From a virus (lineage: Duplodnaviria > Caudoviricetes), in the IMG/VR virus record IMGVR_UViG_3300031578_000032, positions 1 through 59,581 of that record: DNA of 59,581 nucleotides; one strand, 5' to 3'. Below the pieces are notes generated by a model, which saw only the letters and a program-made list of their open reading frames with translations, was not told where the DNA came from and searched no databases. The position numbers and the translations under genes are program-made. Positions 7,020 through 58,615 of the stretch are shown here, one piece after another (positions within the stretch are counted from its first letter, which is position 1; each line of letters begins with the position of its first letter).

Positions 7020-7821
7020 GAGTTATCCTATAATATTTTTTCATATCCATTCTTGGATATGCTTGATCACAAAAACAAATTTTAGATATACAAAATGTCC
7101 AGTCTTGAAGGTATTGCATCGGATCTGTATATATGTTAAAGATTTTATATTTTCTATCCATTTGTGCCCAACATCTCATAACATCACCATTTTCTCTAAT
7201 AATAAAACCTGGTTTACACATTTGATTTTTATAATTACCGTATATGTGTTCATAAATATTGTCCCAATCATATGTATTTTTCATTACATCATATGCTTCA
7301 GTTCCCAATATCTGATGGATGGGACATATCCAAAGTTGTCTCCTATTGAAATGTTTATAATATAAGTGTAATATTTGCTTGACATTATTTTCTTGAAGCA
7401 TGAAAAAGACCTCAGAATTTTTTAATGAATAAACCTTTTCAAACCACTTATCTATATCCGGAATCCAATCAGAATGAAACGAAGCATTAATTATAAAATT
7501 ATCGTACTTATTAAATTGTTCAAAATATTTCTTTGACCTTAATAAATTAGTGTGCATAAGCAAAGTAACGTTGTCAAATTCTTTATTTAATCTATCAGTA
7601 TATTCAATTAGTTTTGGATGTAACGTTGGTTCACCTCCATAGAATTGAAAGAAAAGATTCTCTTTTTTATGCAGATGTATAAACTCAATAACTTTATCAA
7701 AATTATGTTCGACTGTTTCTCTAACATCTTTTTCTTCATTCCAATAACAATACCAACACTTTATATTACATTTTTGAGTTAATACAAATGTTATTTCAAG
7801 AGTAGTATTATAATCAATCAT
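7006..7821 (-). CDS. radical SAM protein
   Basis: CNIKCWYC, FYGGEPT, ASFHSDW, MC...ENGDVMRC...WTFC...CFCD. Confidence 0.9.
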   Translation of the reverse strand: MIDYNTTLEITFVLTQKCNIKCWYCYWNEEKDVRETVEHNFDKVIEFIHLHKKENLFFQFYGGEPTLHPKLIEYTDRLNKEFDNVTLLMHTNLLRSKKYFEQFNKYDNFIINASFHSDWIPDIDKWFEKVYSLKNSEVFFMLQENNVKQILHLYYKHFNRRQLWICPIHQILGTEAYDVMKNTYDWDNIYEHIYGNYKNQMCKPGFIIRENGDVMRCWAQMDRKYKIFNIYTDPMQYLQDWTFCISKICFCDQAYPRMDMKKYYRITHEKK

Positions 7822-8660: not shown

Positions 8661-8665
8661 CTTTC

Positions 8666-8797
8666 TTATTCTATTTCTGGATATTTAGGGAGTTTATCTT
8701 TCTTTTCTTTATCCCAACATTTATCACATATTTTTTCGTAGTTACTTGTGATAAATATAATATATGTATCTTGACCACATCTATCACAAGTCATCAT
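8666..8797 (-). CDS. 43-aa CxxC...CxxC mini-protein (not in ORF track)
   Basis: Manual translation MMTCDRCGQDTYIIFITSNYEKICDKCWDKEKKDKLPKYPEIE*; AAGGA upstream; fills the intergenic gap. Confidence 0.6.
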   Translation of the reverse strand: MMTCDRCGQDTYIIFITSNYEKICDKCWDKEKKDKLPKYPEIE

Positions 8798-9641: not shown

Positions 9642-11936
9642 TTAAGAGTAATTTTGCTCGGCTGTTTCTCCATACATAGCTGTTCCGTCACATAAAAATG
9701 TAATTATATCAGTTCCGCTAGTTGTTATTGTTGGAGGAGTTCCACCTGGCCATTTAAAATCGCTGCTATATGATAGTGTATATGAACTAGGGTTTATTAT
9801 TTTTATTGTATAAAAGGCTAATCCATTTGGCATATTAGAAACTCGAAGTTCAGTATTATCGGTCAGTGTTGCTGTTATTATCTGATGTTCTTCTATATCC
9901 CATGATATGACAGCTGAACCATCAATAATTCCTGATGAAATACTTGTAGAATCATAATACTGGGCTTTTTCCCATTGGTTAGATGTTAAAAGCAACGAAC
10001 TTACGTCTCCAGAAGTCCCACTACTACCCGAACTACCATCTGTACCAGAGGTTCCATCAACACCCGAAGTACCGTCAGTTCCGCTCGTTCCATTGGTACC
10101 TGATGTTCCAGAACTACCTGATGAACCACTACTTCCAGATTCCATCCATATTTGCCAATATAATGACCAGTTAACTCCAGTTCCAGGATCATTATCTATA
10201 GCTGGAACATGATCTTGAATACATAAGTAAATTACTCTATTATCTTCAACCACATCATTGATAACATAACCAGTAGAGTCTATTGACCATGATCCTTGAC
10301 TATAAAATCCATCTCCTGATGTACCAGAACTTCCAGAACTTCCACTTGACCCTGATGTTCCTGATGTTCCACTTTCTGCTAATAAATTCCAATAGGTTTC
10401 CCAAGAAGCTCCTACACCAGGTTCATTTGTAGAATCAGCATTATTAAACAGAATACACATATAAGAGGCATTATTATTTATTACTACATCATTAACATAA
10501 TAATCTTCAGTTGAATCCCAACTTCCTAGATAAGCAAAACCAGTTCCTGAACTACCTGCTGTACCACTAGTTCCATCTGTTCCTGATGTACCATCACTTC
10601 CACTAGTTCCTGATGAACCATCACTACCTGAGCTACCTGATGAACCAGAAGTTCCGTTAGTACCTGATGTACCTCCTGTTCCTGATGACCCAGAAGTTCC
10701 TGATGTTCCATTTGTACCTGACGATCCGCTGGATCCTGATGTTCCATTTGTTCCACCTGCAGCAAATAACTCCCAATAGGTAGTCCAACTAACTCCTACA
10801 CCAGGTTCGTTTGTAGTATCAGCGGTATTAAATAATGTACAAACATAATTGTTATTATTATTAATAACTACATTTTGAACATAATAATCTTCAGTTGAAT
10901 CCCAACTTCCTAAATATTCAAAACCGCTTCCTGATGTACCAGAAGATCCTGAACTTCCATCAGTACCTGCGATTCCTGTAAAAGTTCCAAAATCTGACCA
11001 CAGTCCTGTTGAACCATTGTAGATAATAATATGCCCGTCAAGAGTAGCAGAAGTATCAATATCAGCAGGAGCTCCCTTATCTGCTCTAATATCATTTATA
11101 ATTACAAATGTCCATGTTAATACACTTGTTCCATCAATAGCAGCTTCAATCTCGGTAACTTTTGCTTCATCAAAATCTCCATATTCATCAACTTGAAAAC
11201 TAGATCCACTAGATCCACTAGATCCTGATGTACCATGAGAACCTGACCATCCTGAAGAACCAGAACTTCCGCTTGAACCAGATGTTCCATTTGTTCCTTG
11301 AACACCATCTATTCCGCTTGTTCCATCAGTACCATCAACACCTGATGTTCCTGAACTACCTGATGTTCCGGTAGATGAAAACAATTCCCAATAAGTTTCC
11401 CAATCTACACCATCACCAGGTTTATTTGTACTACTAGATATATGATCTAAAATACATATATAATTATTTAAATTAGTTGCGTCAGCAACAACAACTTCAG
11501 TTGCTATATACGCAGAACTATCTTGCCAATATCCTTGATACACAAAACCAGCACCACTGCTACCTGAACTACCAGCTGTTCCACTACTACCTGATGTCCC
11601 GTGTGTTCCGCTAGTACCATCAGTACCAGATATTCCACTACTACCCGAACTACCATCTGTTCCACTAGTGCCTGAACTCCCGCTGCTACCTGATGTTCCA
11701 CTAGTTCCTGATGTTCCACTAACATCAACGAAAGCAGAACCATCCCATACTGTTACAGCAGTGAACTTACCAGTAGATGGTGTAGTTTCCCCTATTGGAC
11801 CGGGAGAATACATTAATAGTTGTTTTGTAAAGTTTTTAGTCTCATTCCCACTAACATCCACACCGACTCCCAGATCATTTGCATCTAATTGCCCTATGAA
11901 TGGATTGAGACCACTTATAGTTTTGTCTTCAGCCAT
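9642..11936 (-). CDS. Gly-X-Y (GTS/GSS) repeat virion fibre-like protein with four Trp/Tyr-rich (CBM5/12-like) modules
   Basis: Proline-free GTSGSSG tracts; 4x Y.G.W...Y...VV...Y.C...N.PG.G..W..YW; N-term AEDKTISGL; C-term KWPGGTPPTITTSGTDIITF typical of fibre ends. Confidence 0.7.
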   Translation of the reverse strand: MAEDKTISGLNPFIGQLDANDLGVGVDVSGNETKNFTKQLLMYSPGPIGETTPSTGKFTAVTVWDGSAFVDVSGTSGTSGTSGSSGSSGTSGTDGSSGSSGISGTDGTSGTHGTSGSSGTAGSSGSSGAGFVYQGYWQDSSAYIATEVVVADATNLNNYICILDHISSSTNKPGDGVDWETYWELFSSTGTSGSSGTSGVDGTDGTSGIDGVQGTNGTSGSSGSSGSSGWSGSHGTSGSSGSSGSSFQVDEYGDFDEAKVTEIEAAIDGTSVLTWTFVIINDIRADKGAPADIDTSATLDGHIIIYNGSTGLWSDFGTFTGIAGTDGSSGSSGTSGSGFEYLGSWDSTEDYYVQNVVINNNNNYVCTLFNTADTTNEPGVGVSWTTYWELFAAGGTNGTSGSSGSSGTNGTSGTSGSSGTGGTSGTNGTSGSSGSSGSDGSSGTSGSDGTSGTDGTSGTAGSSGTGFAYLGSWDSTEDYYVNDVVINNNASYMCILFNNADSTNEPGVGASWETYWNLLAESGTSGTSGSSGSSGSSGTSGDGFYSQGSWSIDSTGYVINDVVEDNRVIYLCIQDHVPAIDNDPGTGVNWSLYWQIWMESGSSGSSGSSGTSGTNGTSGTDGTSGVDGTSGTDGSSGSSGTSGDVSSLLLTSNQWEKAQYYDSTSISSGIIDGSAVISWDIEEHQIITATLTDNTELRVSNMPNGLAFYTIKIINPSSYTLSYSSDFKWPGGTPPTITTSGTDIITFLCDGTAMYGETAEQNYS

Positions 11937-11950
11937 ATAATTTTATCCTA

Positions 11951-38475: not shown

Positions 38476-38762
38476 AGTTCACTCCCCAAACTTTCTAGTA
38501 TTTTTTCTCTTAATTTTACATTTGAATTATTTATTAATTCAAATTTTGTATCTAAATTTTTTTGAAGTTTTTCACCTTGTTTAACTAAATAATTTTTCTT
38601 TTCAATTTTTTTGTTTAAATTTTCAATAACATATTCCACAGATTCTAGTTTATCTTTTAATGGAAAATTAGGATCTGTTTTGCAAATAGCAAATATTCTT
38701 TCAAGAACTTGTGGCAACATTTCTTTTGATGTTTGCCTTCTTTCTATTTTTTCAATTCTCAT
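38472..38762 (-). CDS. hypothetical protein (head module)
   Basis: 96 aa, ATGA overlaps on both sides. Confidence 0.55.
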   Translation of the reverse strand: MRIEKIERRQTSKEMLPQVLERIFAICKTDPNFPLKDKLESVEYVIENLNKKIEKKNYLVKQGEKLQKNLDTKFELINNSNVKLREKILESLGSEL

Positions 38763-39679
38763 ATATTCTCCAATGACTGATTTAAAAATTTTTGTGATTC
38801 CACACTACAAGTTATTTTTGCTAAATTTCCAGTTGAACATTCACTACCAGCTGGATGACCATATTTGTAGTGGCATCTCTCGCAAACAGATATTGCATAA
38901 TCTGGATCTAGTGCAAAAAATGGTTCAAGCTTTTTAGGTCTTAAATGATGAACTATGGTCGCATGTTCTCCACAGTAGTGGCACAGTTCGTTATCTCTTT
39001 TTAAAACAAGTTGATTTAAAGTATCAAGTTCTGTTGAAGTGTAAGGTAATTTATTATCTTTAATTTCATATGGATCATTTTGTAGCCCATATAAAAAGCA
39101 TGTATCCTTACAGTGTTGAGAACAGTAAAAGTAACTTAAATCATGACCATAATTTTCTAAAGCGCTTATTCTAGCTTCTAATTGTCTACTAGTTGGAGTG
39201 AACCATCCATCTTTTTCTTTTGAGTTTTTACATTCATGGTTTTTACAATGGACCTGTATTTCTCTCTCTTCTAATGGTTTATATGGGTTGTATCTCATTT
39301 CTTCTATTTTAGAAAAGAAAAGATATTTTTCATTTATTATTTCTATACTTCTTCTACAGGAGTATGCTTCTATACCCTTATTCCAAGGCTCTCTTCCTTT
39401 TAATTTTTTTCTCAAAATTTCTTTAACTTTTTCACTTCTTGGACAATTTTTGTTATGTGGAATTCTACCAAGAGCTTTTAATCTTATTTTTTCTTTTGCT
39501 TCAGAAGTTTGTTTTCTTTTATACATAGGATTGTTTTTTCCAATTGTTTGTTGTTTAAGTCTTTCTCTGTTAGCGGGACAACTTTGCCATTTTTCACTAC
39601 AACACCATTTCCCATTCTTAAACTGATATTTTGCTTCTCTACCACAACCATATTCGCAAATTTTCAAATTTAGACCCAC
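38759..39679 (-). CDS. HNH homing endonuclease with NUMOD3-like repeats
   Basis: CEYGCG, GKNNPMY, PWNKG, RDNELCHYCG...VHH...CERCH. Confidence 0.85.
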   Translation of the reverse strand: MGLNLKICEYGCGREAKYQFKNGKWCCSEKWQSCPANRERLKQQTIGKNNPMYKRKQTSEAKEKIRLKALGRIPHNKNCPRSEKVKEILRKKLKGREPWNKGIEAYSCRRSIEIINEKYLFFSKIEEMRYNPYKPLEEREIQVHCKNHECKNSKEKDGWFTPTSRQLEARISALENYGHDLSYFYCSQHCKDTCFLYGLQNDPYEIKDNKLPYTSTELDTLNQLVLKRDNELCHYCGEHATIVHHLRPKKLEPFFALDPDYAISVCERCHYKYGHPAGSECSTGNLAKITCSVESQKFLNQSLENI

Positions 39680-45408: not shown

Positions 45409-46896
45409 TCAAATTTCACAGCCAGGAAAACTCATTGGAGCATTTTGTGTTGAATCTGCCTTCCTAACATTAACCAATAAATTAGCATTAAGAAACTTAA
45501 ATTTATCAAATGCTACTTGAAAATTAATTGACACTCCGCTCTTACCACTACGGTTTTTACCAACTTTTCCATAAACAATTGTGTCATCTGTTTGATCTTT
45601 TGCCATTAACATAACAAAATCTGCATGCTCTACTTTTTTAATTGATTCCGACATTTGATCTACATTTAATTGACTTGCTTCTTGTATTCTGTATGCAGCT
45701 CTTCCTAATTGTGAAGCTGTAACCACAGGGATATTATATTGTACTGCTAAAGTTTTCAATGATAAAGTAATATGCCCTAATTCTAATCTATACATATCAT
45801 ATCCTGTATCTGCTTTTAACAGATCTAAATAATCAACATACAACCCAGCAATAGCTTCTTTACCATAATCGTTTATTGCATCATCAACAACCCCCATTAA
45901 ATCAACTACACTAATACTCATTGCTGGAAAATATTTCATAATAATTGTTGAGCCACAGTTGGTAAATTTATTAACTATTTTTTTCTTAAATTCTTCAATA
46001 TTAAAATTTTCCCTTGTAAGTTCTCGTAACATTTGAGGTGTTGTTTTATTAAACATTGGTTGATAAGTTCTAATTAAAGCTTCTTCAATTGTATTTTCCA
46101 TGGTTACATAAACATAAACCTTGTTTATTTCATTTGGTTTTATTATTGGTTTATTAGGATCTATTAATGTTGCTGATTTATAAATTGTATTATTTAACAT
46201 TGTTGATTTACCAGCTCCAGATCCTCCACCAAAAACATATAATCTGGATGGTTCATACCCACCAAGCATTATATTATTATCAAAAATTGGAAATCCAGTT
46301 GGAGTTGTATTTTGTCTTTCATATTTTTTCTTAATCATTTCAACAACATGACTATAATCATCCTTGACTAAATCTAGCGATGCTGATGCTTCAATAGTAA
46401 CTGATCTATTACTTTCCATTAAATTTGAATATAGTTTCTTTATAGTTACTTCATAATCTTCAACCATATTATCAATAGAATCAAATGACCCCTCTTTAAT
46501 TGAATCCAGCACATCACTTAATTCATCATAATTTTGGAATAGAGCATTAATCTTTTTTCTTAATCTAATTTGATTAATAATATCTTGGAATGCATGATCT
46601 TTAATATTTTCATTAACCTTCAAGTCTATAAAACCAACATGCTGCCTGAACTTTTCTCCAATCATAATACTATCTATTGCATTCTCAACAATTTTATCCT
46701 TTAGAAACATTCCACATAATTGTTTTAATAACTCTAACTTATTCTGAACTTCTACCGGAACATCAAATGACTTTTGTCCCTCACTGAACTTCAATACATC
46801 CAAAATATCTCTGTATAATGCTTTTACCTTTCTAATTTTAGAATTTTTATTCAGAAGTAAGATAAAACATGAATTAAGAAATGAATCAGTAATCAT
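45409..46896 (-). CDS. replicative DNA helicase (DnaB/T4 gp41-like)
   Basis: GGSGAGKS Walker A, YVTMEN, VDYLDLL, TASQLGR, KNRSG. Confidence 0.92.
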   Translation of the reverse strand: MITDSFLNSCFILLLNKNSKIRKVKALYRDILDVLKFSEGQKSFDVPVEVQNKLELLKQLCGMFLKDKIVENAIDSIMIGEKFRQHVGFIDLKVNENIKDHAFQDIINQIRLRKKINALFQNYDELSDVLDSIKEGSFDSIDNMVEDYEVTIKKLYSNLMESNRSVTIEASASLDLVKDDYSHVVEMIKKKYERQNTTPTGFPIFDNNIMLGGYEPSRLYVFGGGSGAGKSTMLNNTIYKSATLIDPNKPIIKPNEINKVYVYVTMENTIEEALIRTYQPMFNKTTPQMLRELTRENFNIEEFKKKIVNKFTNCGSTIIMKYFPAMSISVVDLMGVVDDAINDYGKEAIAGLYVDYLDLLKADTGYDMYRLELGHITLSLKTLAVQYNIPVVTASQLGRAAYRIQEASQLNVDQMSESIKKVEHADFVMLMAKDQTDDTIVYGKVGKNRSGKSGVSINFQVAFDKFKFLNANLLVNVRKADSTQNAPMSFPGCEI

Positions 46897-47212
46897 ATGG
46901 TCTCCCTATATAATGTCTTTTCATAGAATCTGGATGTGAAAGAGATTCTAATATTTCTTTATCTATTTGTTTTGCTACTTCTCGTGTCATTTCTTCCATA
47001 AGTTTGCCCTGAAAATCTATCTCAAAACTATTAGATGTTTCACTCATACTTGTCTGACTAAACGATACTTTAAAAAACCTTGGTTTTATACTTCCCATGG
47101 CATTAGTCACCCAATCAAGTTTTCCTTTTCCCATACATTTTGGGCATAGATTTTTAATATATCCTATATCATTACATTTGTCGCATATTACTTCACCATC
47201 ATTTAGTATCAT
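46886..47212 (-). CDS. DnaJ-type zinc finger fused to a major-capsid-like fragment
   Basis: GEVICDKC...CPKCMGKGKLDWV; tail aligns ungapped with the MCP in this window. Confidence 0.7.
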   Translation of the reverse strand: MILNDGEVICDKCNDIGYIKNLCPKCMGKGKLDWVTNAMGSIKPRFFKVSFSQTSMSETSNSFEIDFQGKLMEEMTREVAKQIDKEILESLSHPDSMKRHYIGRPYDY

Positions 47213-47658
47213 TTGTCAGCCACCACATTCATAATTTTTTGTCTCCATGATATTTTTTCTTTATAAGGAATTGTTTTAATTTTAGGTAATTGACGTATAT
47301 TTACTTTAGACTTTTGTTTAAGAGACTTTCCACCAGGTATGCTTTTTGGTGAAGAGGGTGGGAGTGTATTGATAAAATAAAATGGGATGTAAAGTTTTGC
47401 ATGACCACTACTACCACCAACAATATGTGCTGATGATGAATTCAGTCCATTAGTTCCAGACATCCCAGCGCCAGTCGCATTAGTTATCCAATCAAGTTTT
47501 CCTTTACCTAAACAATGATAACATCGAGAAACTTTATTATCTTCACAATCATAAAAATATCCCCAACCATTACAGACCTCACATATACAATCACCATCTT
47601 TAAAATCTTCAAATTTCTTTATATCAGTTTTTCTGTAATAAACGGCCTCTTTGTTCAT
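47209..47658 (-). CDS. DnaJ-type zinc finger paralogue with a G/S-rich tail
   Basis: CEVCNGWG...CYHCLGKGKLDWI; GMSGTNG..SSS..GGSSG. Confidence 0.65.
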   Translation of the reverse strand: MNKEAVYYRKTDIKKFEDFKDGDCICEVCNGWGYFYDCEDNKVSRCYHCLGKGKLDWITNATGAGMSGTNGLNSSSAHIVGGSSGHAKLYIPFYFINTLPPSSPKSIPGGKSLKQKSKVNIRQLPKIKTIPYKEKISWRQKIMNVVADK

Positions 47659-49040
47659 ATTTTTAATAACTCCGTTTCATGATTTAAATTAATAAATTCA
47701 TCCTTATCTAAAAACCTTTTAACTAAATCTTCACAATAATTTTCATCTAATTGTACTAACATATCCAATGATCTTGCAACCATAGCAGCTTTCTTTACAC
47801 CCTTTTTTGTCATTTTACCACTATTTAAATCTCTTGTTAATGTTGCACATTGGATTTCAAATTCGCCTTTTTCACCCGACTTATATAACGGATAAATTTC
47901 ATCTGCAAGTTTTCTAGATCGTTCTTGAATTTCTGCCCATTGCCATAACATATATAGCATTGAATATACTTTTACATCTTCATAAAATGTTCCAGTCTTT
48001 GGATCATAAACTTCACCAACTTTAATCTTTTTGAAATTCATTTTATCTGAAAATTCATCTAGAATTATTTGTAACTGTTCATAAACCCTAACATATTTAC
48101 TAAACATGTTATTTAGATTTGGAGTCCTCAAATCCATTTTTTGAAGATGACCATCTGGGTGGTCAACCCATAAATATCTTCCAATCATTAAAGACTTAAA
48201 TAAACCAGACGAGTCATAAGTGATGTTTAATTTTATATTATGTTTTTCTAATACAACTTTCCTAAATAATTCATAAAAAGTTACATCTCGAAAATTTGCT
48301 CCACCTAAAATATGAAAGTTCAAAAAATCTCTTCCATATCTTTTAGCTTCATTCAATAAAGGAATTATTGGTAGAACATATATAATACAAGGAATAACCA
48401 TATCTGAAGACATGTTTGCTACAATACCACCTGTACCATGATATTGAAATGAGTTAAACATATTATCTTCTCGAAGTATTTTTGTGTAAAGTTTCCATAA
48501 TTCTGGTGTTCTAAAATGATGTATATAAATTATTTTTTTTCTAATATCATCGGGAAGTTCTTTAGCCCGATTATATGATTCTAAGTTTAGTTCATACACA
48601 TCTTTAAATGTTTTAAATATTTCACAATTTGGACCAGGCGGAATATCTAAAATAAATGCTCGTTCTATAACTTGATGGTGATTTTCAATCCACTCATAAT
48701 ACATTTTACCAAGTAAATTAGATTCCTCTCTAGTTAATCTACCAACAGATATTTGAAATCCTCCTGAGTCTACTATCAAATCTGATGAATTGAAAAACCC
48801 CCAACTTCGACATTTGTTATATACATTTTCTTCATTTTTATTATAGTTTTTATATCTTTTTTTACCAGCAAAATTTTGACCATATGAATGAAGGAATCCA
48901 GAGCAGATTTCCCCAAGAAAATCAGAAATTTGATCCCTCGTAAAGTTGTCATAAAATCGATCTTTTTTACCTAACATATAATTATTTAATATAGAAGCAA
49001 GACTTTCAAATCCTGCCAAAATGTAACCAGATTTAACCAT
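47655..49040 (-). CDS. TGT/DpdA-like base-exchange transglycosylase
   Basis: LIVDSGGFQ, ILDIP, GTGG, FHILGG, TYDSS pattern of the TGT fold; QueE nearby. Confidence 0.7.
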   Translation of the reverse strand: MVKSGYILAGFESLASILNNYMLGKKDRFYDNFTRDQISDFLGEICSGFLHSYGQNFAGKKRYKNYNKNEENVYNKCRSWGFFNSSDLIVDSGGFQISVGRLTREESNLLGKMYYEWIENHHQVIERAFILDIPPGPNCEIFKTFKDVYELNLESYNRAKELPDDIRKKIIYIHHFRTPELWKLYTKILREDNMFNSFQYHGTGGIVANMSSDMVIPCIIYVLPIIPLLNEAKRYGRDFLNFHILGGANFRDVTFYELFRKVVLEKHNIKLNITYDSSGLFKSLMIGRYLWVDHPDGHLQKMDLRTPNLNNMFSKYVRVYEQLQIILDEFSDKMNFKKIKVGEVYDPKTGTFYEDVKVYSMLYMLWQWAEIQERSRKLADEIYPLYKSGEKGEFEIQCATLTRDLNSGKMTKKGVKKAAMVARSLDMLVQLDENYCEDLVKRFLDKDEFINLNHETELLKI

Positions 49041-49092: not shown

Positions 49093-49488
49093 CTATTTTA
49101 TAGTAAAATTTAAAGCAATAGTATAAGTGGTGTTAACCGGTTTAATATTAATATTAATATACTTATTTATACAACTTGATTTAACTTCATAATCAATAAT
49201 TACTTTATTTACCTGTAAAGATTCTAAATGTTCTTTCATTTTTTTATTAAAAATATATATATTATTAAAATCTTCACTACAAGCTATCTGTTTAATAGAT
49301 GAAATAAATTCTCTGACGTCTATACGTTCTAAAATTGACCTTTTTTTACTTTTTATTACAGCATTAGAAATCCAGTCAATCTTTCCAATACCATCACATT
49401 TTCCACATATATAAATATCATTTGTATCGTGGGTAGTTCCTTTACAAACAGGACATATCATTTCACCTTCTTCTAATTTAAGATTCAT
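49093..49488 (-). CDS. DnaJ-type zinc finger fused to a tail-sheath C-terminal-like domain
   Basis: GEMICPVC...CGKCDGIGKIDWI; SILERIDVRE...IK, IIDYEV, INIKPV...IALNFTIK. Confidence 0.7.
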   Translation of the reverse strand: MNLKLEEGEMICPVCKGTTHDTNDIYICGKCDGIGKIDWISNAVIKSKKRSILERIDVREFISSIKQIACSEDFNNIYIFNKKMKEHLESLQVNKVIIDYEVKSSCINKYININIKPVNTTYTIALNFTIK

Positions 49489-49501
49489 TTTTCACTATTC
49501 C

Positions 49502-49744
49502 TCATCTAAAATCATGGGTTGTATTGAAAGTATTTCTTTTGCCATTAACTTTGGATATACTGTTTTTCATAACAAATACAGACCTTGGAGGAGCTTTTCC
49601 AACACATGCCTCAATCCAATCAAGTTTTCCAGCACCCCAACATTTCATACAAACAGTAACGGACTCACCAAAACTTTTAGATTTTCCATGACAATTATCA
49701 CAAATTATTTCACCTTCTTCTAATTTAATATCTTTCATTCTCAA
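49502..49744 (-). CDS. DnaJ-type zinc finger paralogue with a short tail
   Basis: GEIICDNC...CMKCWGAGKLDWI. Confidence 0.65.
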   Translation of the reverse strand: MRMKDIKLEEGEIICDNCHGKSKSFGESVTVCMKCWGAGKLDWIEACVGKAPPRSVFVMKNSISKVNGKRNTFNTTHDFR

Positions 49745-50262
49745 AATTCCTTAATTACATATGGAGGTCCAGTTGCCATATCATATGTAGTTGATGCCTT
49801 TAAAGCTGCCATTATTCGTCTTTTAGAATTACTCCATGTTCTTGTTGTCCATAATGATCCAAGTGCATAAGGAGCACCAGAACCAATCGCTACAAAGTCT
49901 TTAAGCTCATTCATTTGAAAATCAGTTAAAATCTCAAATAATTTTCCATTAGGTGTAGCTATTAAAAAATTTGATGATTGTATAGAAGTTTGGTCTTCTG
50001 GATTTACAGCTAAACAGCCCTTAATTTCTAACTGTTCCCTTATCTTATCAGGAAATTCAAAAATATCTTTAGGGGGATTAAAATACTCTGATCTAATTAC
50101 TTGTCCTGTTCTGATGACTCCAACATGTCCAATAAGATAAGGATGATTATAAAACATTTTTTTATTTATTATACGTCTTCTTTCTCCCTCTGCAGTAGTA
50201 GCATAACTATCAGCTCCCATCCACACTTTTCCGTTATCAATAATCCCAACAATAGTAGACAT
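49741..50262 (-). CDS. Ntn-hydrolase (HslV/proteasome beta-like) peptidase
   Basis: MSTIVG...MGADS, K, AIGSGAPYALG. Confidence 0.8.
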   Translation of the reverse strand: MSTIVGIIDNGKVWMGADSYATTAEGERRRIINKKMFYNHPYLIGHVGVIRTGQVIRSEYFNPPKDIFEFPDKIREQLEIKGCLAVNPEDQTSIQSSNFLIATPNGKLFEILTDFQMNELKDFVAIGSGAPYALGSLWTTRTWSNSKRRIMAALKASTTYDMATGPPYVIKEF

Positions 50263-50263: not shown

Positions 50264-51082
50264 TTATTCTCCTTTTAATTTCATATCGTCTTTCATTCTT
50301 AAACATTTAGCAAGATCAAATGCGTAATCATAAATATGTAACCCTTTAGATGTAGCAATCATTTCTCCATTTTCAACTCCAATTTCTGCTGCTATATATT
50401 GTTTAAGCAATTCAATCCCCGCTAAATTTGCAGGTAAGCCCCCGTAAAGGTCCCAACTCCGAAAATATGGAAAAAAGTGTAATTTTCCATCTTGAATACG
50501 AGTATCTATATGTCGTAAACAAGGGGGATCTTGAAGTAACATATCAGTAGGTTGTGATACTTGTAAAACCATTTGATTATTTCTATACCCCTTATTTTTA
50601 TAAGTCCAGATTAAAAGTTCTATTTGACTCAAGAATTTATTAATCATTGTATCTTCTTTATCGCCTTTAATTATTATTGTATCATCATTCCATGCTTCAT
50701 CATCTTGAATTAAAATATCTTTAAATTTATCTAGTTTATACATTTCCCAATCTGGTCTAAAAGGCATTTTTGTCAGTCTTTGCCCATAAGTATATGATTC
50801 ACCAGGTTTTAAATCGCCTGTCATTAAATATGGAAGATAATCATCGAGATAATCATCAGACACTGGATTTGGAATACCATAATGTGCTTCAATTTGTGGT
50901 AATAATGGAAGTACATCAGGATGTTGAATTCTTATTGTAACCCAGTCAAATTCAAGTCTTTTTTGCCCAGCATAAGATCCTCGATCAATTTTAAATACTC
51001 TACCCTCCTCAAGCATTCTAAAAAGGGTTTGAAACCAGGCATCTCCTAAATTTGTTGCTTCAATAAATTGAGTATTTAACAT
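50264..51082 (-). CDS. thyA: thymidylate synthase
   Basis: YTYGQR, DPPCL catalytic Cys, FRSWD...PAN (Asn indicates dUMP specificity), LHIY. Confidence 0.88.
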   Translation of the reverse strand: MLNTQFIEATNLGDAWFQTLFRMLEEGRVFKIDRGSYAGQKRLEFDWVTIRIQHPDVLPLLPQIEAHYGIPNPVSDDYLDDYLPYLMTGDLKPGESYTYGQRLTKMPFRPDWEMYKLDKFKDILIQDDEAWNDDTIIIKGDKEDTMINKFLSQIELLIWTYKNKGYRNNQMVLQVSQPTDMLLQDPPCLRHIDTRIQDGKLHFFPYFRSWDLYGGLPANLAGIELLKQYIAAEIGVENGEMIATSKGLHIYDYAFDLAKCLRMKDDMKLKGE

Positions 51083-51084: not shown

Positions 51085-51378
51085 TTATTCACCTTCCTTT
51101 TTACTCATAATTCCATACACTTCATCATACTTTAAAACTTTACATAAATGACGATCGAGAATTATATCCATACCACCATGTTTATTAAACATAATTATAT
51201 CACCTACTTCAATATCTTTTACTAATCCACCAATAGATGTTACTTTTCCTAATCCTTGTGGTTTCAACTTACCTTGTGCTACTTCGGGTACAATAATTCC
51301 ACCTTCTGTTTTGTTATCCTCTTCTAATATTTTTACTATTATTTTATCATTGACTGCAATTGCATTTAATTCATTCAT
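51085..51378 (-). CDS. groES: co-chaperonin GroES
   Basis: DKIIVK, KTEGGIIVP mobile loop, G.V..IG, VGDIIMF. Confidence 0.9.
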   Translation of the reverse strand: MNELNAIAVNDKIIVKILEEDNKTEGGIIVPEVAQGKLKPQGLGKVTSIGGLVKDIEVGDIIMFNKHGGMDIILDRHLCKVLKYDEVYGIMSKKEGE

Positions 51379-51655
51379 TTCTTTTCCTCCATTTTTTAGC
51401 TATCATCTTTTTATACTGTTCTTCTCTTTCGAGTTCTTTTTGTTCTTCCTTTTCAATATTACGAATACAATTTGCCTTCTTTCTCCGTTTTTTATCACCA
51501 GGTTTTTCATAAAACATTCTTTGATAAAGTTCCCTGGATAGTCCACTCTTAGAATACTTTTTTCTAAATCTTTTTATCAAGGATTCTATATCTTCACCTT
51601 TTCGGCTGGTTACTACAAACATGGTTTTCTTTTTAATTCGATTAATATTAATCAC
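51371..51655 (-). CDS. rpsU: ribosomal protein bS21
   Basis: GEDIESLIKRFRKK...G...E...RMFYEKPGDKKRRKK; probable GTG start at 51655 after GGGGGA. Confidence 0.8.
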   Translation of the reverse strand: MININRIKKKTMFVVTSRKGEDIESLIKRFRKKYSKSGLSRELYQRMFYEKPGDKKRRKKANCIRNIEKEEQKELEREEQYKKMIAKKWRKRNE

Positions 51656-51665
51656 AATTCCCCCT

Positions 51666-52328
51666 TTATATAAACCCGTATATGACATGATCTCTTGACG
51701 AAAAATTAAAATTATATTCTTCACAAGCATCAAATACAGCTCCAGAATTTTTTATTAAGTCTGCTCTTGTTACTCCCTCAATCATTAAATATACTCGTTG
51801 GTTTACATTAAGGACAGACAAAGCTTCTAAATAATCATTAACCAAAGCTCTGTCTTCATAAACAACTTTAAAATAAACATTCGGATATTTGATTAATTGT
51901 CCAGTTGAGATTATTTCATTCTCTAAATCTCTTTGTGTAAATATTTTTGGCGAATATGAATAATTTACATTTTTGTCTGCTTTAACTTGTGAAATAAGGG
52001 ACAGAAGATTATAGCCATTAGTTTCAACATTTGCTATTGGATAATCTAATTCATTTAACAAAAGTAAACATTCCTTAAAATGTTTAGCTATTGTTGGTTC
52101 TCCACCTGTTACTAAAATTCCACATTTATGTTCATCTATAACTTTTTGAATGGCTGATAAATCATAAATACCTTCTTGTGAAATTCTCATTTTAACATTT
52201 GTATCACAAAAACTACATTTCCTATTACAATACTTAAACCTTAAAATGACCATTAAACGACCTCTATCTACTCCCTCCCCCTGAAAACTCCTAAAAAATT
52301 CAATAAGTTTTACTTGTTTTCCTTCCAT
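51666..52328 (-). CDS. queE: 7-carboxy-7-deazaguanine synthase-like radical SAM
   Basis: EFFRSFQGEG, CNRKCSFCDT, TGGEP, ETNG, SPK. Confidence 0.85.
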   Translation of the reverse strand: MEGKQVKLIEFFRSFQGEGVDRGRLMVILRFKYCNRKCSFCDTNVKMRISQEGIYDLSAIQKVIDEHKCGILVTGGEPTIAKHFKECLLLLNELDYPIANVETNGYNLLSLISQVKADKNVNYSYSPKIFTQRDLENEIISTGQLIKYPNVYFKVVYEDRALVNDYLEALSVLNVNQRVYLMIEGVTRADLIKNSGAVFDACEEYNFNFSSRDHVIYGFI

Positions 52329-52345: not shown

Positions 52346-53083
52346 TTATTTTTTGTTCTTAATTTCATCCACTATATCTTTATCTTCTTCATCTTTATAA
52401 ATAACTCTTTTATGATAAATACTTTCAAGTTCTTTAGTTAATATTCTTTTAATTTGTTTAATAGCACCATGTAATATTTTGTCCAACTGGTCATCATCAT
52501 CCAGTCTCTCAATAGTTGATTGAATAATTCGTTTTATAAATACTCCATTTTCTTCATCATCTTTTCTTTGTATAATCATTGCTCGAGATGTTGCTTCTAC
52601 TGAATCCACAATCATCAAAACAATTGATTCCATTGAAGTTGGTTTTCTACCCTTGTAACGAAAAAGATCTTCCGGAGATTCTTCTTCTTTTTTATGAAAT
52701 TGTCTTAAAAGAGTATCACCATGATGTTCACTAATAATCTTTATAACTTCAATTGGAAAATCGTTTTGTAAAAGAATCAAAACCCCATCAGAGACATGTC
52801 TTGTAATTAAATGATAAGATACATTTGGTTCAATATCATCATGTATATTTGTTTTTGCAGGTTGATTTTCAGAAAAATTCAACGGATAATTCATCTTTCC
52901 AATATCATGGTATAAACCACAACATCTCATGAGATCTACATCAAGTTCTAATTCAATAGCAATCGACTCACAAATGTTAGCAACATTTTGTGAATGTTTA
53001 TAAGAACCTGGCGCTATTTCTCTATACTTTTCGAGTAAAGGAAAAGTAGGATCAATATATTTTTTATATTTGTCATTGCTCAT
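52346..53083 (-). CDS. stand-alone HDIG/HD domain protein, PgpH-like phosphodiesterase
   Basis: APGSYKHS, YHDIGK, FSENQ, HDD..P..S...I..HV.DG, EHHG, FRYKG.KP, DSVEA. Confidence 0.82.
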   Translation of the reverse strand: MSNDKYKKYIDPTFPLLEKYREIAPGSYKHSQNVANICESIAIELELDVDLMRCCGLYHDIGKMNYPLNFSENQPAKTNIHDDIEPNVSYHLITRHVSDGVLILLQNDFPIEVIKIISEHHGDTLLRQFHKKEEESPEDLFRYKGRKPTSMESIVLMIVDSVEATSRAMIIQRKDDEENGVFIKRIIQSTIERLDDDDQLDKILHGAIKQIKRILTKELESIYHKRVIYKDEEDKDIVDEIKNKK

Positions 53084-56000
53084 TATATTGTTATAACCTC
53101 CATGTTTTGTTTAGAATCTATTAATGGTTTTAACATTAATTCATGACGATCTTCAAAGCAGAATTTTAAATTGCCTTTTACATCTGGAAAAAAGTATGTT
53201 GGAAGTCGAGCTTCTTCATCCGGTATAGCTATAACTTCAAGTTTTCCATGTTCAGCAACAAATTTGTCATATTTCTTAACTACATCTGGTGGTGCAGTCA
53301 TTGTATCAATTCCATTTACTCTATACATATATCCTTTAGTTCCTGTATTATGAATATCATACATGATATTGTTCCATGCCTGCATAGCTTTTACACCCTG
53401 TGGAACTAATTTATAATCTTTAATTTTCTTTCCCCATGATACTGGTCTGGCGATTGATTTATCTCCTTTTTTTATTAAATTAATAAATTCTGATTTCTCT
53501 GTATTAATAAACTTTAATAGTTGTGGTAAAGATACTTTTTCAGTTTTTAGAATTAAATCAATTAGCTGTGATAAAAATTCTTTTGATTTACTTGGGTAAT
53601 CTGATCTTTTAATTTCAACTCCCATATATTCAACTTTATTAATATCTTTTCCCTCTTTATTAATAACTCTAATTGCATATCGTTTTTTAGCTAAAAATAA
53701 ACCTCGTGAAATAACCAACTCATTTTTTAAATTTAACCCATTACAATCTAAAGGAACATTATGTCTTTTTACAATACTAGTCATAATATCATTATTAAGA
53801 AAACTTTGAATACTCTCACACCAAGTTTGAATTTGACTAACTGTTTTTTCACCAGAAAAGTTTTGAAAACAACAGAAAATTGAATCAGTATCTCCTGTAA
53901 TAATATACTCATGACTTCTGTTTAACATTTCTTTTTCATACATTTCTTTTTTAGATATTTCTAATGGTTTAACATAAGCTTTTCCTGTATCAAGATATCT
54001 CATATAAGCATCACCTTCAACAATAGATGCCTTTAAAGCTTCCTGTCCACTTAATGTTACTGCTGCTGCTAATGATAAATCAAAAAATCTAAATGATTTA
54101 TTAGCAACAACTCCATATAATGTATTAGCTAAAACCTTATATACTAACTGCCTAGTATAATAAAAAAATTCTGATGTTTTATCTTTTTCTTCAATTGAAT
54201 CAAACATTTTATCTTTGTAGCCTTTTCTAGTTGACATTAGTCCACCAACTACATCACTAAAAACAGAAACTTCTTTATCATGTGCCTTAAAGAAACAACC
54301 ATTAATTGTATAAACCAAATTCTGTTCCTTAATTTTCTTTAATAGTTGAACTGATGTTATTATAACTTCTTTTTTAGCATATGTTGGATCTATTATAACT
54401 TTGATTTTTTCTGGTAAATTTTCAGGATGATATGTCAAGTCATATCCCAATAATGGATCATCAAATTTCATAACAAAGTTATTTATTCCAATGTTATAAG
54501 TCATAATAATCTTTGGATATAGAGATTCAAAGTCAAAATCTGTAATGTCATTATAAATTCCAGGAATTGGATCAAATACAAAAGCTCCAGCATATTTCTT
54601 TTTCTTAATATACATATCTGCATTTTTAGATGCCCAACCCTTATTCTTAAGATGATTAACCATTAAAGAATCAATCTGTGAAAATGATGAAATACCCTCA
54701 AAACTTGTTTTACAAACAATCCTTAGTTCATTTATTAAATTAATATGTTGAAGTTTATCTTCTAGTTCTTTAATAATTTCTGTATCTCTAATATTATAAT
54801 CAATTGATAAGTTTAACATTTTCCAATACATTTCGTTCATTGGTAATGGTAATTGAATTTTTGTTTTTCCTAATTCATGTTGTGCTATAAATCCAAGTTT
54901 GTAGTTTTCCATTTTAGTAAATGTAAATGTTCTATACATAAACTCTTGATCTATAGCAATACACCCAGCTAGTTTACAAAAATATTTTGGACCATCAACA
55001 TAGAATTCATTAAACAGACTCAGGCTTCTTTGAACAATTTTTAATTTTGGTAAACGATTAAATATATAACTAAGATCAAAATTAATAGAATTCCACCCTG
55101 CGATATAATCAGGATCTTCATCTTTAAAATCTTTAATAAATTCTTTCATCATTGTATATTCGCTTTTAAAGATTTTTAACTCAAACCCTTTCTTTTCAGT
55201 AATCAGTTCTGTTTTATTATCTACAACATAGCTTATTTGTCTTTTATTATAAATACTTGAAATCTCATTAATTGGAAATGCAGCATCTATTGCATGTGGA
55301 AATCCCCTATATTTTCCCGTATCAATCTCAATGTCAAAAAATTTAATATTATTCTCTGTCTTTTTAGCTTCTCCTTTACTAAAATGATAATAGTCCATTG
55401 CATGTTTTATAGTAATTTTAACATCACCTTCATATGTTATATCAGGATCTAACACAGACTGATCTCTAAAAGCAACACACACTTGATCTAGTTCATCATA
55501 CGGAACAATTTTTCTTGTTTCTAAACCAGGAGGAGCTTGATAGCAAATATAATCATCATTTTCTGTATGATATATTTTCTTATTATTAGAATCTCTAAAA
55601 ATATATAAAACCTTTTTCTGTGTACTAAGATATTGAACATCAATTAATCTATAATTTTCTGTATAAAATTTTTCGGGTATTTTATATCTGTAAATACCTT
55701 TCTTATCCAGCTTTTGTACTTCACTACTTGTCTTAATGTTAATTTTTTCCCCTTCCATCATTTCTGAAATTTTTGCCATATCTTCTTCAAATTTTGGTAA
55801 CCATACTTTTTGATTTCTATTAACAAATGATGGATGAACTGTTAAAAAAATATTATAGTTTTTCCATTTAAAAATATTTCCGTGAATTTTAGTAATACCT
55901 GATTTAGCAATATCAAATGCTTTCATTGGACTTGTACCTAATAATACAACTAATTTGGGATTACAAACTTCTATTAAATTCATACAGTTAACTTTACATT

Positions 56001-56316
56001 TTTCAATTACATCATCAGTTGGATTGCCTGTAGTTCCATCTGGATTAATTGTTTGACATAAAACTACATTAGTAATTAAATATTTAAGTTTATTTAATTT
56101 GAATTGCTTAAAAAATTTACGAAAAGTTTGCCCACTACGCCCAATTAAAGGACATGGTGGGTTAGCTTCACACTCTACTTTTCCTGGATTTTCAGCTATA
56201 AAAATTACATCAACTTGACTTAGATCCTTTTCACAATTAGTTTCAAGAATACAGGAAGGGGAATCTAATAGTTCACATTCCAAACAATTTGCAAAAGATT
56301 TTTTTATTGAATTCAT
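53083..56316 (-). CDS. family B DNA polymerase with an N-terminal family-4 uracil-DNA glycosylase domain
   Basis: UDG: CLEC, AENPG, GRSG, TNVVLC, HPS; exonuclease DIEID, WNSINFD, YNIRD; polymerase DFESLYP, KVLANTLYG, GDTDS, KKRY. Confidence 0.92.
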   Translation of the reverse strand: MNSIKKSFANCLECELLDSPSCILETNCEKDLSQVDVIFIAENPGKVECEANPPCPLIGRSGQTFRKFFKQFKLNKLKYLITNVVLCQTINPDGTTGNPTDDVIEKCKVNCMNLIEVCNPKLVVLLGTSPMKAFDIAKSGITKIHGNIFKWKNYNIFLTVHPSFVNRNQKVWLPKFEEDMAKISEMMEGEKINIKTSSEVQKLDKKGIYRYKIPEKFYTENYRLIDVQYLSTQKKVLYIFRDSNNKKIYHTENDDYICYQAPPGLETRKIVPYDELDQVCVAFRDQSVLDPDITYEGDVKITIKHAMDYYHFSKGEAKKTENNIKFFDIEIDTGKYRGFPHAIDAAFPINEISSIYNKRQISYVVDNKTELITEKKGFELKIFKSEYTMMKEFIKDFKDEDPDYIAGWNSINFDLSYIFNRLPKLKIVQRSLSLFNEFYVDGPKYFCKLAGCIAIDQEFMYRTFTFTKMENYKLGFIAQHELGKTKIQLPLPMNEMYWKMLNLSIDYNIRDTEIIKELEDKLQHINLINELRIVCKTSFEGISSFSQIDSLMVNHLKNKGWASKNADMYIKKKKYAGAFVFDPIPGIYNDITDFDFESLYPKIIMTYNIGINNFVMKFDDPLLGYDLTYHPENLPEKIKVIIDPTYAKKEVIITSVQLLKKIKEQNLVYTINGCFFKAHDKEVSVFSDVVGGLMSTRKGYKDKMFDSIEEKDKTSEFFYYTRQLVYKVLANTLYGVVANKSFRFFDLSLAAAVTLSGQEALKASIVEGDAYMRYLDTGKAYVKPLEISKKEMYEKEMLNRSHEYIITGDTDSIFCCFQNFSGEKTVSQIQTWCESIQSFLNNDIMTSIVKRHNVPLDCNGLNLKNELVISRGLFLAKKRYAIRVINKEGKDINKVEYMGVEIKRSDYPSKSKEFLSQLIDLILKTEKVSLPQLLKFINTEKSEFINLIKKGDKSIARPVSWGKKIKDYKLVPQGVKAMQAWNNIMYDIHNTGTKGYMYRVNGIDTMTAPPDVVKKYDKFVAEHGKLEVIAIPDEEARLPTYFFPDVKGNLKFCFEDRHELMLKPLIDSKQNMEVITI

Positions 56317-56513: not shown

Positions 56514-57305
56514 ATGCAAACAAACATTACTTATCAAAAAGCAATAGACATCTTACAATTGAATAAACAAAACATTACAATTCCGCATACATTAATCAAT
56601 TTCAGGTCTATGATTGCAAATGATGAATTAACAGATTATTCGGAGTCCAGTTTAATAGAAGCCAAAAATATCATACTCCGTTCATGGATCGAAGAACAAC
56701 TTCAAAAACAAGGTCATTGGGAGTTAAAGTCTCCTTACAAAGATGAATGTAAAAGGTGTAATGGTACTGGCGAAATCTATAAATTAGAGAAAGAGAAAAA
56801 ACCATGTCATGCATGTAATGGTGATGGTTACTTATGGGTTAAATGTAGAAATTGCGAAGGTACAGGCAGATTTATAAGAGATGATAAAAAGGCCAAAGGT
56901 CTTATAATAAATGTTGAATGTAATTGTACCAAATTTGCCAACCATTATGGCGATAAATACAAAGGTAAAATTCGAGTTCGGTGCCGAGAATGTCTTGGAA
57001 AAGGAAATATTGAAAATTTGAAAAATTCCAAGGAATGGAAAAATAAGAATTTTAGATATACAGGAAAAATTTATACCACTACTAAATGCCCAAACTGTTA
57101 TGGTTTTGGTTTTCCTGTTACACCAAGAGGTCATTTGAATCCAGTTTTATCAAACCGCCTTGTACAAATCATCAATACTGAAGACACTGTTCATGTGGAT
57201 CCTCTTAGTTTGGATCCTTTGTATGTTATACATAGAATACCAATAAGAACTACTCATTCTGTGATAGATTCTTCGATGCTTAAAATTGCTAGAGAATCCA
57301 TTTAA
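56514..57305 (+). CDS. DnaJ-like zinc-finger (CxxCxGxG repeat) protein lacking HPD
   Basis: CKRCNGTG, CHACNGDG, CRNCEGTG, CRECLGKG, CPNCYGFG. Confidence 0.7.
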   Translation: MQTNITYQKAIDILQLNKQNITIPHTLINFRSMIANDELTDYSESSLIEAKNIILRSWIEEQLQKQGHWELKSPYKDECKRCNGTGEIYKLEKEKKPCHACNGDGYLWVKCRNCEGTGRFIRDDKKAKGLIINVECNCTKFANHYGDKYKGKIRVRCRECLGKGNIENLKNSKEWKNKNFRYTGKIYTTTKCPNCYGFGFPVTPRGHLNPVLSNRLVQIINTEDTVHVDPLSLDPLYVIHRIPIRTTHSVIDSSMLKIARESI

Positions 57306-57865: not shown

Positions 57866-58615
57866 TTATTTATTTTGATCTAATAAATTATAAATATCTG
57901 TTTTTAACTCATTCGTTGATGGTATATAATCAACATAATTTATATATTTCCATTTATAATTTTTTAAATATCTTCTTCTTTTTTCATCATAAATTTTATC
58001 TTTATGCCAATAACTTCCATCATATTCTATAACTAGTCTTTTTTCTGGAATAGCAATATCTAAACTGTAATTAAAAAAAGGATAATTAAGAACAGCAGTA
58101 GAAAATATCTTTTGAACTTTATTAAACAGCTCAACTTGTGGTTTAGATGGATTCTTAATAAAAAAATTACAATATGCAGCTTGACCACTATTCATTTTTA
58201 TTGATTGTATTTTTCTTTGTTTTAATCCATTAGAACTATTCCACCATTTCTTACATGTCTTTGATATCTTTTCTCTTGTTGTTTTTTTATGTTCTTTTTT
58301 ATAAAAATGATGATTTTTTCCAGACTGACTTTTACTTGATTTTAATTTACTTTCCTCAGTATGGTGTTTATTTTTCCAATAACCTTCTGTTCCATAAACT
58401 GGATGATTTTTGCCTTTTGGAGTATTCAAAAATTGTTTTTGTTTAACTTCTGGATTCTTATATGCTTTAAGAACTCCTTCTTTTATTTTTTCTTTGTGAA
58501 CTTTACTATATGGTCCTTTGAGTCTTCCTTTGAAATAATGACCTTTTATATATTTATTTGATTTATTTGTTACTTTTATTCCACACCCACATTTACAAAA
58601 AGGTAGGTCCATCAT
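57866..58615 (-). CDS. NUMOD3 plus Vsr/DUF559-like homing endonuclease
   Basis: CKCGCG, KHHTEESKLK, GKNHHFY, LDIAIPEKRLVIEYDGSYWH. Confidence 0.8.
   Translation of the reverse strand: MMDLPFCKCGCGIKVTNKSNKYIKGHYFKGRLKGPYSKVHKEKIKEGVLKAYKNPEVKQKQFLNTPKGKNHPVYGTEGYWKNKHHTEESKLKSSKSQSGKNHHFYKKEHKKTTREKISKTCKKWWNSSNGLKQRKIQSIKMNSGQAAYCNFFIKNPSKPQVELFNKVQKIFSTAVLNYPFFNYSLDIAIPEKRLVIEYDGSYWHKDKIYDEKRRRYLKNYKWKYINYVDYIPSTNELKTDIYNLLDQNK

Follow-up and report, generated by a model that had tools for sequence, protein, structure and literature searches.

Why would a phage encode, outside its tail genes, a small protein that joins a zinc ribbon to a free-standing domain of the tail sheath? The question is raised by a minus-strand gene for a 131-amino-acid (aa) protein, here called Z131, at positions 49093-49488 of a DNA stretch from a tailed virus (Caudoviricetes; IMG/VR record IMGVR_UViG_3300031578_000032). 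The whole stretch, referred to below as the window, spans 59,581 bases, is judged to be about 19% of the genome, and has a GC content of about 30%. Read from its sequence, Z131 consists of two parts, a zinc ribbon of the DnaJ/Anti-TRAP type and a homologue of the complete sheath C-terminal domain. What is absent, compared with a whole sheath protein, is the N-terminal arm and approximately 550 residues of outer sheath domains. Profile comparisons make the homology of the Z131 family to the sheath domain secure, while the fold evidence alone is no more than suggestive.

The gene and its zinc ribbon

The first-pass annotation had called an open reading frame (ORF) at this position, with a zinc finger and a truncated sheath C-terminal domain, and had raised capping or poisoning of sheath assembly, or a decoy function, as possible roles. 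The ORF runs from ATG to stop on the minus strand, and three peptides that had been quoted from it, SILERIDVREFISSIK, HLESLQVNKVIIDYEV and ININIKPVNTTYTIALNFTIK, are all present in the translation. The zinc finger is likewise there, as a CxxC...CxxCxGxG zinc ribbon at the N-terminus. The features of the gene, with the evidence for each, are as follows.

49093..49488, minus strand: Z131 gene, zinc ribbon plus sheath C-terminal domain, 131 aa (ORF list, homologues)
49354..49488, minus strand: zinc ribbon, Z131 residues 1-45, ending in GKIDW (invariant cysteines, profile matches)
49096..49353, minus strand: complete sheath C-terminal ("handshake") domain, Z131 residues 46-131 (AlphaFold2 model, hhalign, PF17482 in relatives, fold matches)
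49499..49503, minus strand: GAGGA, a Shine-Dalgarno box read from the sequence and a putative ribosome-binding site

The GAGGA box lies 10 nt 5' of the start codon and shares bases with the stop codon of an upstream paralogue, Z80. In its N-terminal 45 residues, Z131 carries the CxxCxG and CxxCxGxG knuckles found in the cysteine-rich domain of DnaJ, in Anti-TRAP and in BSD2, with four cysteines (C12, C15, C28 and C31) making up a single site. Unlike DnaJ, it has two knuckles and one zinc site (four cysteines versus eight) and no J domain, and it falls below all curated cut-offs; against the central cysteine-rich domain of DnaJ (PF00684), for example, it scores 15.3 bits, where the cut-off is 32.7.

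Conservation of the family

A word-indexed protein search returned five relatives, 131-133 aa in length and 64-82% identical to Z131, and an exhaustive profile search returned 376 proteins at E ≤ 1e-3. A homologue with 78% identity (P0004) is encoded on a 306-kb contig. Among the 150 of these 376 that were listed, at least 58 are near-full-length relatives, 125-190 aa long. They were picked as those whose match reached profile position 125 or beyond (P0002 and 57 others), and were merged with the first six sequences into a family alignment of 63 sequences, whose identity to Z131 ranges from 24 to 82%. By sequence, then, the family holds at least 58 clusters (at 50% identity) of similar length. 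The four cysteines, G33 and W39 are invariant across all 63. The GK-x-DW-I/V-x-N tail of the zinc ribbon is conserved and specific to this phage family, and the C-terminal consensus reads S.L..INVRR...I ... L..L.....I.DY ... I.I.IKP....E.I.

In a Pfam scan at E ≤ 10, DnaJ_CXXCXGXG was matched by 59/63 members and Anti-TRAP by 54/63. BSD2_CRD matched 15/63 members, and 11/96 other zinc-ribbon proteins at E ≤ 0.01; this second set of 96 is made up of the 92 remaining representatives, three paralogues from the window and one protein from a related locus (L011).

Evidence for a complete sheath domain

Single-sequence searches were of little use in assigning the C-terminal part of Z131. Against Pfam and PHROGs, Z131 gave sub-threshold zinc-finger matches only and none to sheath, with no match to Phage_sheath_1C (PF17482) even at E ≤ 10, and its profile against the sequences of the Protein Data Bank (PDB) gave only zinc-finger noise (E ≥ 0.69). 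At the level of the family, the sheath signature becomes visible. Phage_sheath_1C (PF17482, curated cut-off 26.9 bits) matches 28/63 members at E ≤ 10, with a best E-value of 9.1e-9. When 10 members were scanned individually, three scored above the cut-off (27.0, 29.3 and 30.4 bits), three matched below it and four were unmatched. The orthologues at two related loci also pass the cut-off (L010, 147 aa, 27.8 bits; L011, 158 aa, 27.6 bits), and their matches cover PF17482 from positions 3-8 to positions 67-103 of 104.

The converse comparison, starting from the family, is stronger. A profile hidden Markov model (HMM) was built from the C-terminal columns of the family (89 positions). In the window it finds the Z131 ORF only (E 9.5e-24; next best 0.049), and it matches the true sheaths of five related jumbo-phage records at their extreme C-terminus (E 4e-15 to 1e-13). 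A five-sequence version of the domain profile gave E-values of about 1e-15 against the sheaths of relatives, and across domain profiles the range was 1e-13 to 1e-16. These comparisons relied on the sheaths of relatives with 76-85% capsid identity as stand-ins for the sheath of the genome itself, and no sheath gene was found in the window with Phage_sheath_1, Phage_sheath_1C or the domain profile. With hhalign, the 63-row family aligned to five full-length sheaths (660-664 aa, counted from the first ATG) with a probability of 98.1% and an E-value of 8.4e-14; the 102 aligned columns extend to sheath position 659 of 660. Even a pairwise BLASTP of Z131 against the nearest of these sheaths, that of record G010, gave an E-value of 0.003.

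These alignments also bear on the description of the domain as truncated, which does not stand. Orthologue matches to PF17482 start at positions 3-8 and reach 103-104 of 104, and the hhalign alignment extends as far as the final residues of the sheaths. Since the domain is complete, "truncated" suits the sheath protein and not the sheath domain. Compared with a whole sheath, Z131 is a stand-alone module with a zinc ribbon in front, is encoded away from the tail genes, and lacks Phage_sheath_1, the N-terminal arm and the outer domains. Phage_sheath_1 (PF04984) has no match at E ≤ 10 anywhere in the window, and Z131 is thus without the core sheath domain. The sheaths of the clade start with M-x-x-x-S-P-G-V; Z131 has no counterpart of this N-terminus and has the zinc ribbon there instead. 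Here hhalign places the zinc-ribbon end on the sheath strand that immediately precedes the C-terminal domain.

A recent duplication of the sheath of the clade was considered as a source of the domain and is unsupported. The sheaths of the clade score 48-53 bits with the domain profile, only 5-10 bits above the T4-like and cyanophage sheaths, which score 41-45 bits together with those of E. coli jumbo phages.

The predicted fold

A first AlphaFold2 model, built from six sequences, was poor (pLDDT 59.4), and Foldseek already placed sheath proteins and gp25 on top with weak E-values. A second aligner applied to this model gave the Lin1278 sheath (Z 8.0), T4 gp25 (Z 7.7, rmsd 3.2, 80 residues aligned) and the phi812 sheath (Z 7.5), with the C-terminal domain of PanC close behind (Z 7.2). 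With 63 sequences, the model improved to a pLDDT of 89.3 and a pTM of 0.70, and its topology was unchanged. In this model the sheath domain is predicted to have helices at residues 56-71 and 77-93 and strands at 97-105, 110-117 and 124-129.

With the 63-sequence model, the first 10 Foldseek rows were all sheath entries, at E-values of 0.022-0.12 and none at or below 0.001. A search of 48,161 representative chains that was independent of Foldseek gave residues 491-579 of the phi812 sheath as the best match (Z 8.0, rmsd 2.7, 76 aligned). Among its first 12 rows, 10 were contractile tails, injection systems, type VI secretion system (T6SS) baseplates or gp25-like proteins (IraD and 2ia7), and the other two were PanC and a yeast ribosome factor. 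IraD had a Z of 6.8, as did a 121-residue chain of the T6SS baseplate entry 6gj1 that is taken as TssE; for several of the cryo-EM entries, chain identity was inferred from chain length. The ESM Atlas gave no match above its own bar, and its weak structural rows include gp25 and Phage_sheath_1C clusters. Sheath similarity, looked for by profile and by predicted structure, was thus found in both: sheath entries head the Foldseek results, and the profiles of relatives match sheaths.

Most alignments to assembled sheaths end at model residues 119-121, while those to monomeric crystal forms reach 130-131. This difference would fit a last strand that corresponds to the exchangeable C-terminal strand of the sheath, folded back.

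Overall, the domain is homologous, over its whole length and by both profile and fold, to the sheath C-terminal domain of T4 gp18, the phi812 sheath, Lin1278 and DSY3957 (PF17482). It shares the same fold of two helices and three strands, and a size of about 120-135 aa, with the baseplate initiators gp25, TssE and XM1 gp15 (PF04965). However, it groups with the sheaths by sequence, carries a zinc ribbon and is encoded outside the baseplate genes. GPW_gp25 (PF04965) has no match in the window at E ≤ 1, and it does not appear in the list of the 25 families with the most matches across the 63 members.

Distribution among relatives

The clade to which the window belongs consists of gp23-type jumbo myophages with a conserved block of genes for DNA polymerase, QueE, bS21, GroES, a ThyA-like enzyme, an HslV-like peptidase, a DpdA-like protein and DnaB. 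Finding the Z131 gene in this clade depended on the depth of the query. Neither blastn nor tblastn against 50,697 phage records matched the region or the Z131 protein, and scans of viral contigs with the single protein and with a shallow alignment returned no loci; the same scan with the 63-row alignment returned 33. A metagenome scan returned four loci, none with a sheath-domain orthologue.

The block, with a zinc-ribbon plus sheath-domain gene beside the ThyA-like or DpdA-like gene, recurs in three further loci (L010, L011 and L020). At another (L007), the conserved block is accompanied by a paralogue with a capsid fragment, and the Z131-type gene is absent. Relatives whose capsid has 85% (G010), 78% (G005), 77% (G011) and 76% (G012) identity to that of the window are myoviruses with a canonical sheath. 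The genome of one of them, G005, is complete at 277 kb, has terminal repeats and encodes a canonical gp25 as well (a 144-aa frame, GPW_gp25 36.5 bits). No second sheath-domain gene was found in G005, G010, G011, G009 or G013, where the domain profile finds the sheath only, and all five have other zinc-ribbon paralogues at the matching position.

The number of these paralogues also varies, from three in G010 to four in the window, five in G005 and seven carrying the motif in G012. In G012, the seven motif-bearing genes, one being a sheath-domain version, belong to a row of eight small tandem ORFs that separates the DpdA-like gene from DnaB. The seven span L020:8743-11215, and a 107-aa ORF without the motif lies just upstream (8423-8746). 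Two of the G012 zinc-ribbon genes end in G-x-x-[YW]-x...[YF]-x-x-x-G-W, as does a 133-aa paralogue in G005. The Z131 gene thus belongs to the variable, accessory part of a tandem family that is expanding.

Full-text literature searches did not turn up a description of the architecture; a very recent Pfam number, PF27659, is assigned to the family in a precomputed table, and prior curation is possible. The zinc-ribbon passages of a jumbo-phage survey make no mention of this architecture (PMC7824862).

Paralogues with pieces of virion proteins

Three other zinc-ribbon genes in the window flank Z131 on the same strand, and the tails of two of them can be compared with virion proteins of the window.

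49502..49744, minus strand: Z80, zinc ribbon plus short C-terminal tail, 80 aa (44% identity to Z131 over 52 aa, E 9e-12 in a window-only database)
47209..47658, minus strand: Z149, zinc ribbon plus Gly/Ser-rich tail, 149 aa (motif, weak low-complexity matches)
46886..47212, minus strand: Z108, zinc ribbon plus capsid-like C-terminal segment, 108 aa (BLASTP E 0.017)
9642-11936, minus strand: collagen-repeat protein, 764 aa (PF01391, E 2.6e-30)

The C-terminal segment of Z108 aligns with residues 286-314 of the gp23-type capsid protein of the window (BLASTP, E 0.017). Its orthologue at L011:11872-12291 (139 aa) gives a clearer result, matching Pfam Gp23 over positions 149-194 at 34.3 bits (E 2.2e-8; cut-off 24.4) and residues 258-314 of the window capsid at an E-value of 6e-7 in a small database. 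Among the other zinc-ribbon proteins, Gp23 is matched by 4/96 at E ≤ 0.01, and a regular expression for the capsid helix motif is matched by 10/96. In the window, L007, L011, G005 and G010, the gene immediately upstream of DnaB is a capsid-tailed zinc-ribbon gene, and this position is kept in relatives that have no sheath-domain paralogue. Further paralogues with a capsid fragment are found at L016:10239-10598 and L025:10190-10573, and the G012 gene upstream of DnaB encodes 204 aa with a tail that looks capsid-like by eye. At the start of the L011 paralogue (11872-11950), about 23 residues resemble sheath residues 472-494 (E 0.11), which may be a recombination scar or chance.

The possibility that the capsid fragment acts as the Gol peptide that triggers the Lit protease was rejected. 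Gol lies within the first quarter of gp23, according to the relevant passage of PMC3014915, whereas the fragment covers residues 258-314 of a 483-aa capsid protein; the fragment is therefore not Gol.

Collagen-like tails are less clear. The tail of Z149 weakly resembles the collagen-repeat protein of the window, in low-complexity matches with E-values of 0.15-8. In G010, the paralogue that stands where the window has Z80 and Z131, with the HslV-like gene on one side and the DpdA-like gene on the other, scores 24.4 bits against Collagen, below the 27.2 cut-off. The collagen-repeat stretch at 9642-11936 has a GC content of 0.39, compared with about 0.30, and its product is probably a fibre.

A model that would cover the whole set is that the tandem genes of the clade form a rapidly changing family of "zinc ribbon plus bait" proteins, whose baits copy the self-association elements of the virion: the sheath handshake domain, a capsid segment and collagen-like fibre repeats. 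Such mimics could be decoys that blind bacterial pattern recognition to core virion folds, or homotypic placeholders that set the time and place at which each virion protein polymerises, and Z131 would be the member directed at the sheath. We consider this broader model, baits included, an outside prospect.

A possible role in sheath assembly

Contractile injection machines, among them phage tails, tailocins and the T6SS, have their universal joint in the sheath C-terminal domain. As set out in the passages on sheath structure in PMC10457771, neighbouring subunits of the assembled sheath are joined by the pairing of an N-terminus from one with a C-terminus from the other, and the pair adds to the two-stranded sheet of the C-terminal domain one ring below. 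The same passages describe gp25-type initiators, which have this fold and grip the first-ring termini, with gp25 and TssE acting as stand-alone starters of polymerisation.

On this background, the explanation that we favor is that Z131 acts as a soluble gp25-like platform that binds the termini of sheath subunits and holds or caps them, and we would give it a probability of roughly 0.4. The platform would be formed by the hairpin at residues 97-117, together with the last strand at 124-129, and its putative ligands would be the terminal strands of unassembled sheath subunits. Alternatively, Z131 might donate its own last strand to an exposed platform. Either way, subunits would be held or capped by a protein that has neither the N-terminal arm nor the parts needed for the next ring. 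The zinc ribbon might replace the missing part of the sheath inner domain, and so stabilise or oligomerise the module; the alignment of its end with the sheath strand before the domain hints weakly at this. The role would then be control of sheath polymerisation during infection, either as a holdase for the sheath of the phage itself, tuning its own assembly, or as a block on that of a rival, be it a phage, a tailocin or a T6SS.

Some context is consistent with this proposal. GroES and an HslV-like peptidase are encoded nearby, head genes lie downstream on the same strand, and the paralogues carry pieces of other self-assembling virion proteins. A complex prediction of Z131 with the G010 sheath, used as a stand-in on the strength of its 85% identical capsid, returned a score of 0.00 and no verdict, and speaks neither for nor against binding.

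Several points weigh against sheath-directed assembly control. Fold similarity reaches a Z of 8 at most, where the C-terminal domain of PanC reaches 6.8-7.2. The 5-10 bits that separate the sheaths of the clade from T4-like ones mean that the domain is no recent copy tuned to its own sheath. The gene sits among replication and nucleotide-metabolism genes and not among tail genes, and the T4 late-promoter motif TATAAATA is not enriched in the window (18 found, 15.5 expected). Finally, close relatives with 77-85% identical capsids, including the complete G005, are without a Z131-type gene. Since these phages live without it, the gene cannot encode a required assembly factor; an essential assembly role is unlikely and an accessory one more likely.

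Alternative explanations

The variation among relatives could also be the mark of an arms race. Under an immune-decoy hypothesis, the paralogues display pieces of virion proteins and thereby occupy host pattern-recognition defence proteins without activating them. Core virion folds, among them the major capsid protein and the tail tube, are sensed by bacterial STAND/Avs receptors, and the passages of PMC13581612 that cover this name the tail sheath, speculatively, as a further possible target. A tandem, fast-changing set with differing tails, a sheath version that is patchy among close relatives as arms-race genes are, and a position outside the tail-gene module would all be expected of such a decoy. 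However, no defence system that senses the sheath C-terminal domain is known, and no likeness to known anti-defence proteins was seen, PADLOC not having been searched. We consider the decoy unlikely.

Z131 could instead be part of the virion, with its sheath domain docking on the tail as an extra baseplate initiator or a neck-end cap, and with the variable tails of the family targeting the matching virion parts. Its 131-aa size and its fold match gp25/TssE, and the platform hairpin and C-terminal strand could slot into a sheath end. The capsid and fibre-like pieces of the paralogues could co-assemble in the same way, and the head genes follow downstream on the same strand. Against this, the complete G005 has a canonical gp25 and no Z131-type gene, the gene lies outside the tail and baseplate cluster, and its sequence belongs to the sheath family and not to GPW_gp25. 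A virion component or targeting tag is, in our estimation, quite improbable.

Both halves of the protein have precedents as regulators. RssB is bound by IraD of E. coli, which has a gp25-like fold, and TRAP by the zinc-ribbon protein Anti-TRAP. IraD thus shares the fold outside a tail and is a precedent for its re-use as a binding module, although it is a host protein without a zinc ribbon and its likeness to Z131 is structural. By analogy, Z131 might bind a host or phage regulator, a DnaK/DnaJ chaperone or the neighbouring HslV-like peptidase. The Z of 6.7-6.8 between IraD and the model, the breadth of the zinc-ribbon matches (Anti-TRAP in 54/63 and the DnaJ zinc finger in 59/63 members) and the placement in a replication, nucleotide-modification and chaperone block, which may be expressed early or mid-infection, are in keeping with this idea. 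Nevertheless, a sheath signature that remains strong enough to give 41 bits on T4-like sheaths argues for continued selection on sheath-type contacts, and regulatory re-use leaves the virion-fragment theme of the paralogues unexplained. We regard it as more doubtful again than a place in the virion.

That Z131 is evolutionary debris, a functionless recombination relic of a sheath gene, is very improbable, since, although the resemblance of the L011 paralogue start to the pre-domain sheath segment (E 0.11) hints at recombination, a length of 125-160 aa, the four cysteines and the domain motifs persist in 63 sequences whose identity falls as low as 24%, three further loci share the synteny, and the ORF is intact with a ribosome-binding site.

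Significance

To our knowledge, sheath-type domains were previously known in free-standing form only as the baseplate initiators gp25 and TssE. Z131 adds a second free-standing form: sheath-derived, fused to a zinc ribbon of chaperone type, encoded away from the tail genes and patchy among relatives. If assembly control is its role, proteins of this kind would provide naturally occurring small inhibitors of, or holdases for, sheath polymerisation; if the decoy hypothesis is right, they would represent a new type of counter-defence, directed at receptors for virion folds. The paralogues, which repeat the design with a capsid fragment and with collagen-like repeats, point to a general strategy of expressing isolated interaction modules of the virion, and this theme is the part most worth following.

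Genomic neighborhood

On the minus strand, the gene order leads from the DNA polymerase through the zinc-ribbon genes to the head genes.

53083-56316, minus strand: DNA polymerase, start of the gene order
52346-53083, minus strand: 245-aa ORF
51666-52328, minus strand: QueE-like radical-SAM enzyme
51371-51733, minus strand: homologue of ribosomal protein bS21 (PF01165, 53.9 bits)
between bS21 and the ThyA-like gene, minus strand: GroES
50264-51082, minus strand: ThyA-like enzyme
49741-50262, minus strand: HslV-like peptidase, followed by Z80 and Z131
47655-49040, minus strand: TGT/DpdA-like protein (weak PHROG 887 match), followed by Z149 and Z108
after Z108, minus strand: DnaB helicase, three ORFs of at least 100 aa, portal, an ORF and prohead protease
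after the prohead protease, minus strand: HNH endonuclease, an ORF and the gp23-type major capsid protein (483 aa)

The DpdA-like and QueE-like genes suggest 7-deazaguanine DNA modification. The position of the bS21 homologue between QueE and GroES is kept in L010, L011 and G010 (L025). Mobile elements are present within core modules: an HNH endonuclease gene (38759-39679, minus strand) lies between the prohead protease and capsid genes and a homing-endonuclease-like ORF (57866-58615, minus strand) lies near the DNA polymerase.

On the opposite strand, at 56514-57305 (plus), a 263-aa protein has several DnaJ-type CxxCxGxG knuckles (32.3 bits, with a cut-off of 32.7). It matches PHROG 127, "antitermination Q-like", and is a longer relative of the zinc-ribbon family.

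At the other end of the window, seven tandem radical-SAM/SPASM ORFs occupy 464-7821 on the minus strand, five of them mutually 24-33% identical and another pair 34% identical. The array is interrupted by an NAD-dependent epimerase/dehydratase gene (2283-3194). Such a concentration of radical-SAM genes is unusual for a phage, and the array is perhaps involved in sugar or nucleotide modification.

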